Part shown: positions 61,931-62,058 of the stretch, piece by piece
Position numbering within the stretch: position 1 is the first letter of the stretch
Layout of the letters: each line of letters opens with the position of its first letter
Position numbers and translations under genes: made by a program
Notes under the pieces: generated by a model
What the model was told of the DNA's origin: nothing
Seen by the model: only the letters and a program-made list of their open reading frames with translations
Database searches by the model: none
Assembly (NCBI RefSeq): GCF_041886205.1
Contig: NZ_CP169029.1
Source: Escherichia coli
GTDB lineage: Bacteria > Pseudomonadota > Gammaproteobacteria > Enterobacterales > Enterobacteriaceae
DNA length: 64,000 nucleotides
Direction: 5' to 3' (one strand)

Positions 61931-61993
61931 CCAGTATCCCCACTGTTATTGTTACTATTTAAAATCAAATTAGTAACAATTAAGACACATTTT

Positions 61994-62013
61994 ATATTGA
62001 ACGTCCAATCAAT
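61994..62013. promoter_or_regulatory. Imperfect dyad TATTGAACGTCCAATCAATA in the betT-betI divergent region (candidate BetI operator)
   Basis: TATTGA / TCAATA arms in an AT-rich region between divergent starts. Confidence 0.45.
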
Positions 62014-62058
62014 AACCGCTTTAATAGATAAACACCGCTGATGAATGGAGTGGCGAAA

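Follow-up and report, generated by a model that had tools for sequence, protein, structure and literature searches.

Which sequence in the short spacer between the divergent genes betT and betI of Escherichia coli is read by the repressor BetI, and does one such site serve the promoters of both genes? The spacer studied here lies in a 64,000-nucleotide stretch of an E. coli genome (contig NZ_CP169029.1, RefSeq assembly GCF_041886205.1), referred to below as the window. The gene betT (59897 to 61930, minus strand, ATG at 61930) encodes a choline transporter of the BCCT type with 677 amino acids, as assigned from the open reading frame, the RefSeq annotation of identical DNA, and the NCBIfam subfamily model NF007399, which the product matches with 1314.8 bits against a cutoff of 695. 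Opposite to it, betI (62059 to 62646, plus strand), the first gene of betIBA and followed by betB, encodes a TetR-family choline-responsive repressor of 195 amino acids. The BetI product scores 306 bits with the NCBIfam equivalog NF001978 (cutoff of 118) and 265 bits, above cutoff, with TIGR03384, placing the gene for the cognate repressor at the locus itself. Many TetR-family models (TetR, AcrR, RutR, and others) match residues ∼8 to 100 of BetI, and a gene for a regulator with an N-terminal TetR-type helix-turn-helix thus adjoins a divergent BCCT transporter gene, the arrangement typical of TetR-type regulators.

In the RefSeq annotation, betI begins with the ATG at 62059. An open reading frame finder begins the gene at an in-frame ATG at 62041, giving 201 amino acids; no Shine-Dalgarno sequence precedes 62041, and the start at 62059 is favored because it is preceded by GGAG at 62047 to 62050 (plus strand), found by manual reading and kept in the enterobacterial alignment. 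The intervening segment, ATGAATGGAGTG (62041 to 62058), is kept in Klebsiella and Enterobacter. A preliminary description of the region had put the two divergent starts 128 bp apart and called the control region AT-rich, and both statements were borne out: positions 61931 to 62058 separate the minus-strand ATG at 61930 from the plus-strand ATG at 62059, with a G+C content of 32.8% compared with 52.6% for the window and 55 to 57% for the betT and betI genes. The bet region was found in 5,180 of 5,426 complete E. coli genomes and the spacer in approximately 5,178 E. coli records at 95 to 100% identity, with the 601 bases around it sharing 100% identity with two E. coli chromosomes.

The same description had singled out an imperfect dyad in the spacer as a candidate BetI operator. 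This is the 20-mer TATTGAACGTCCAATCAATA (61995 to 62014), which occurs once in the window and has perfect 6-nucleotide arms, TATTGA and TCAATA, separated by an 8-nucleotide gap; read as TATTGA-N8-TCAATA, with its axis between 62004 and 62005, it has 7 of 10 complementary pairs overall. Entirely within it lies a 14-bp imperfect palindrome of the ATTGA-N4-TCAAT type, ATTGAACGTCCAAT (61996 to 62009), with halves ATTGAAC and GTCCAAT that meet at an axis between 62002 and 62003. Six of its seven pairs are complementary, A62000/C62005 being the mismatched pair, and this count together with its conservation identifies it as the operator core. Chance occurrence of the dyad was assessed with 5,000 dinucleotide-preserving shuffles of the 128-bp spacer. 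An equally good 20-mer palindrome arose in 53% of the shuffles, a perfect 6+6 inverted repeat whose arms were 0 to 12 nucleotides apart in 42.5%, and a 14-mer with at least six of seven pairs in 25.5%. Dyad symmetry alone is therefore without statistical significance (shuffle P of ∼0.25 to 0.5), and what lends the dyad its significance is conservation and published experiments, not a symmetry statistic.

Two independently published BetI sequences coincide with the 20-mer. The BetI binding sequence taken from PbetI, TATATTGAACGTCCAATCAA (Guharajan et al., PMC8667592, Table S3), maps to 61993 to 62012, and this 20-mer, positioned at +1 of a synthetic promoter, confers BetI-dependent repression to a fold change of ∼10^-3 (PMC8667592). 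From genetic circuit design, the primer for the BetI gate promoter, AATTGATTGGACGTTCAATATAATG, is available (PMC7058928), and ATTGATTGGACGTTCAATATAA within that promoter is the reverse complement of 61992 to 62013. Both published sites are centered between 62002 and 62003, and their union (61992 to 62013) was taken as the extended operator. In published genomic SELEX, the betT-betI spacer was the sole specific BetI site, located in the region where the promoters overlap; published gel-shift and SELEX experiments found that BetI remains DNA bound in the presence of choline, and choline is an established inducer of the bet genes. BetI binding to 61993 to 62012 and the sufficiency of this sequence for repression are thus literature results, and the element that had been proposed as a candidate is one already known, the E. 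coli bet operator.

To compare the element across taxa, BetI was used as a tblastn query against a collection of plasmids and chromids, which yielded bet loci from several orders. Eleven gamma- and betaproteobacterial loci were compared, from Klebsiella pneumoniae, K. aerogenes, Enterobacter, Pantoea, Duffyella, Acinetobacter (three loci), Pseudoalteromonas (two loci), and Burkholderia. A core with at most one mismatch from ATTGAACGTTCAAT was present exactly once per locus and always upstream of betI, so that the betI box is conserved in 11 of 11 loci, against a chance expectation, by our own estimate, of ∼0.002 per 5.5-kb locus. In the 64-kb window, allowing up to two mismatches from ATTGAACGTTCAAT gave a single match, at 61996, where 0.24 would be expected. 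The flanks of the core diverge, with a T-rich left side and an A-rich right side kept across taxa. Among the loci, 24 to 130 bp separate the core from betI (63 bp from the betI ATG in E. coli), and the core is kept in the Pseudoalteromonas loci, which have no divergent betT. Within E. coli, the block from 61977 to 62034 is invariant among the sampled strains, with single nucleotide polymorphisms (SNPs) at 61949, 61956, 61972, 62035, and 62055, and the same block is nearly invariant across Klebsiella and Enterobacter. In A. baumannii the betI box (locus position ∼2360 to 2395) sits inside a palindrome of ∼36 bp, ACTTGTTATTGATTGAACGTTCAATCAATAACAAGT, far longer than that of E. coli; it precedes the annotated betI start (2465) by 94 bp and the start of the tblastn match (2501) by 130 bp. 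Upstream of betI in two alphaproteobacterial loci, those of Azospirillum and of Sinorhizobium meliloti pSymA, no BetI box was found with three or fewer mismatches or in the form TTGA-N6-TCAA. A plasmid of Azospirillum sp. strain B510 carries ATTGATCGTTCAAT (locus position 5312 to 5325) upstream of a divergent operon for an ABC transporter of the glycine betaine/proline type, and this placement suggests that BetI may control that operon.

The pairing pattern bears on which of the two overlapping dyads BetI would recognize. As the comparison was anchored on the motif and selects for the core by construction, the invariance of individual positions is overstated while the count of one match per locus is unaffected; read with this in mind, five of the seven pairs about the 62002-62003 axis (62002/62003, 61999/62006, 61998/62007, 61997/62008, and 61996/62009) are complementary in all 12 sequences, with the pairs 62001/62004 and 62000/62005 complementary in 9 and 6, respectively. 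That BetI instead reads TATTGA-N8-TCAATA about the axis between 62004 and 62005 is very unlikely, even though this reading has perfect 6-nucleotide arms and, over 20 nucleotides, a pair count (7 of 10) equal to that of the published 20-mer. Of its inner pairs, 62002/62007 and 62001/62008 are complementary in none of the 12 sequences and 62004/62005 in one; the outer pair 61996/62013 is complementary in only five, with T62013 of E. coli replaced by A in Klebsiella and Enterobacter; the published sites, moreover, are both centered on the other axis. The TATTGA/TCAATA pairing is a by-product of the repetition of CAAT in the right arm (CCAATCAATA). The dyad first noted is thus a real operator, but the register in which it had been described did not stand, since the conserved axis lies 2 bp to the left.

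A related idea is that both registers are in use, with choline-bound BetI sliding by 2 bp to the axis between 62004 and 62005. Its model is BetI2 of Ruegeria pomeroyi, which switches preference between two overlapping palindromes, and, if true, such sliding would explain the long-standing oddity that the E. coli protein is not released from its operator on induction. We consider it highly improbable, as the lack of conservation of the second register argues against it, and so does the footprint of E. coli BetI, which is reportedly unaltered by choline.

The position of the core relative to the two promoters was then considered. A consensus promoter and terminator scan of 61850 to 62150 returned no sigma-70 promoter and no terminator; it missed the likely −10 hexamers, TTTAAT and CTTAAT, because both are without the A at position 2 that the scan required. 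Hexamers were instead assigned by hand, anchored with the offsets published for the neighboring ArcA site (PMC3798270). For betI, the putative −35 hexamer TTGAAC (61997 to 62002, plus strand) is the left half-site of the operator and is separated by 17 bp from the putative −10 hexamer TTTAAT (62020 to 62025, plus strand), found by manual reading and invariant in four enterobacterial sequences. For betT, the putative −35 hexamer TTGGAC (62003 to 62008, minus strand) is the right half-site and lies 18 bp from the putative −10 hexamer CTTAAT (61979 to 61984, minus strand), also read manually. The operator would accordingly overlap both −35 hexamers, as judged from the sequence. The betT transcription start is deduced to lie at 61972, because the ArcA site, described as spanning −18 to +25 of betT, maps to 61990 through 61948. 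The betT and betI transcripts reportedly begin 61 bp apart, and the betI start is presumably located at approximately 62032 to 62033, as obtained by adding this spacing to 61972. With that spacing, the midpoint of the starts at 61972 and 62033 is 62002.5, which is the dyad axis. BetI is also said to protect 21 nucleotides over both −35 boxes. The earlier suggestion that one operator serves both promoters fits this geometry, in which the half-sites fit the putative −35 hexamers and the axis falls midway between the deduced starts.

Because promoter elements are themselves conserved, the block could in principle be kept as two −35 hexamers only, with BetI acting elsewhere in the spacer; TTGAAC and TTGGAC are plausible −35 sequences at suitable spacing from −10-like hexamers. 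This explanation is extremely unlikely, given that the 20-mer brings about BetI-dependent repression at +1 of an unrelated promoter (PMC8667592), that the core persists without a divergent betT in Pseudoalteromonas and at distances of 24 to 130 bp from betI, and that SELEX yielded one BetI site, in the region of overlapping promoters. The best reading is a dual role, in which −35 hexamers and operator coexist in the same bases. The further notion that an AT-rich spacer produced the dyad by chance, without any regulatory role, has virtually no prospect of being correct despite equally good dyads in 25 to 53% of shuffles and a window-wide expectation of 0.24 at two or fewer mismatches, since the core recurs in the same genomic context across orders (11 of 11 loci) and functional data on the BetI site have been published.

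Taken together, the element is almost certainly the E. coli bet operator, on which a BetI dimer would occupy ATTGAAC and GTCCAAT, with AT-rich flanks extending to approximately 61992 to 62013 and half-sites that fit both −35 hexamers. In the mechanism that we propose, a dimer of the TetR-family protein BetI would bind the imperfect palindrome at 61996 to 62009, whose half-sites TTGAAC (betIBA) and TTGGAC (betT) would serve as back-to-back −35 hexamers of divergent sigma-70 promoters. Because the half-sites fit both −35 hexamers, one BetI dimer could exclude RNA polymerase from both promoters; this steric step, like the hexamer assignments and the start positions, is what we infer. Choline lifts repression, probably through an altered bound complex and not through release, because BetI is reported to stay DNA bound with choline. 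Anaerobically, phosphorylated ArcA (ArcA-P) represses both promoters from the adjacent four-repeat site at 61948 to 61990, which covers the putative betT −10 hexamer and start.

This ArcA-P site, ATGTGTCTTAATTGTTACGAATTTGATTTTAAATAGTAACAAT (61948 to 61990, minus strand), consists of four direct repeats with 11-bp spacing and was taken from the supplement of PMC3798270. There it is a 43-nucleotide site at −18 to +25 of betT, accompanied by a betT/betI peak in ChIP (Park et al. 2013, PMC3798270) and associated with ArcA repression of betT and betIBA. The published sequence maps to 61990 through 61948 with one SNP, and both the TGTTA-type direct repeats with 11-bp spacing and the ChIP peak are present, the ChIP data and repeat scores being those of PMC3798270. 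The site abuts the BetI operator on the betT side, covering the betT −10 hexamer and start, and does not overlap the 14-bp core. The strongest symmetry of the spacer is found here, as an inverted repeat of 61948 to 61960 with 61968 to 61980 (ATTGTTACTATTT and AATTAGTAACAAT), which has 13-nucleotide arms, 12 of 13 complementary pairs, a 7-nucleotide gap, and a shuffle P of ∼0.001. It was considered as a second operator or an RNA hairpin and rejected: it lies inside the published four-repeat ArcA site, its palindrome is not kept in Klebsiella and Enterobacter, where units of the TTGT(T/A)AC type are kept, and, with betT transcription starting at 61972, one arm of a hairpin would not be transcribed. 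On the opposite strand, one arm of the repeat reads as a perfect TGTTA unit, and an inverted arrangement of ArcA half-sites at 61948 to 61980 is conceivable.

Several further differences between strains were observed around the spacer and elsewhere in the window. Across 601 bp (61700 to 62300), the sole difference from E. coli K-12 MG1655 is at 61972, which is A in the window and C in K-12 and O157; on the betT strand this is T rather than G, at the deduced betT +1, within ArcA repeat 2 and outside the operator. The A allele is common to strains Nissle 1917 and U13A. In E. coli E24377A, IS1A (locus position 748 to 1445) is inserted in the spacer at the equivalent of 61976/61977, with the BetI operator on one side of it and the betT start region on the other; betT is thereby cut off from its promoter, whereas the operator and the promoter of betI are undisturbed. 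Farther away, comparison of 55962 to 59390 with E. coli 6EVA revealed that ∼3.26 kb is missing from the window, comprising pdeL and the 3′ part of ehaA, with the junction near 57420. What remains of the EhaA autotransporter adhesin is a 666-amino-acid N-terminal fragment (57390 to 59390, minus strand) beside yahB (56399 to 57331). A 351-bp query across the junction (57250 to 57600) matched no place with at least 80% coverage in the 5,426 complete E. coli genomes.

Compared with known systems, the element is at the same locus as the BetI operator of E. coli K-12 and identical to it in sequence (Lamark et al. 1996; Rokenes et al. 1996; PbetI site in PMC8667592), and apart from 61972, K-12 and the window correspond at every base of the operator, the two putative promoters, and the ArcA site. 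Mapped as early as 1996 and listed in regulatory databases, the bet operator also serves as a standard component of synthetic gene circuits. The preliminary description had picked out a real operator using only the sequence; the symmetry statistic, taken on its own, would have been insufficient grounds for doing so, and the chosen pairing missed the true axis by 2 bp. Other proteobacterial betI boxes resemble that of E. coli in having ATTGA...TCAAT half-sites, a 14-bp core that overlies a −35 box in front of betI, and a BetI binder of the TetR family. In R. pomeroyi, the box of BetI1, ATTGACG·CGTCAAT, lies in a 29-bp DNase I footprint over a −35 box and is reported to match the betI-box consensus (PMC12442346). 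The core of E. coli is imperfect, whereas perfect ATTGAACGTTCAAT is found in the Pantoea locus and in two of the three Acinetobacter loci; in A. baumannii symmetry reaches ∼36 bp. The E. coli site serves two divergent promoters. With respect to ArcA-P sites with multiple repeats (Park et al. 2013, PMC3798270), 61948 to 61990 is one published four-repeat site and an element separate from the BetI dyad. The control region is compact, with one dimer site doubling as two −35 hexamers and the ArcA site abutting it. A close parallel is the tetR-tetA system, the archetype of the TetR family. There, as in bet, a short spacer separates the gene of a TetR-family repressor from a divergent transporter gene, and a dimer of the repressor binds a palindromic operator within that spacer and represses both genes. 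In tet, the spacer holds a tandem pair of 15-bp operators, from which TetR dissociates once its inducer binds; the bet spacer, in contrast, has one operator, to which BetI is reported to be still bound with choline.
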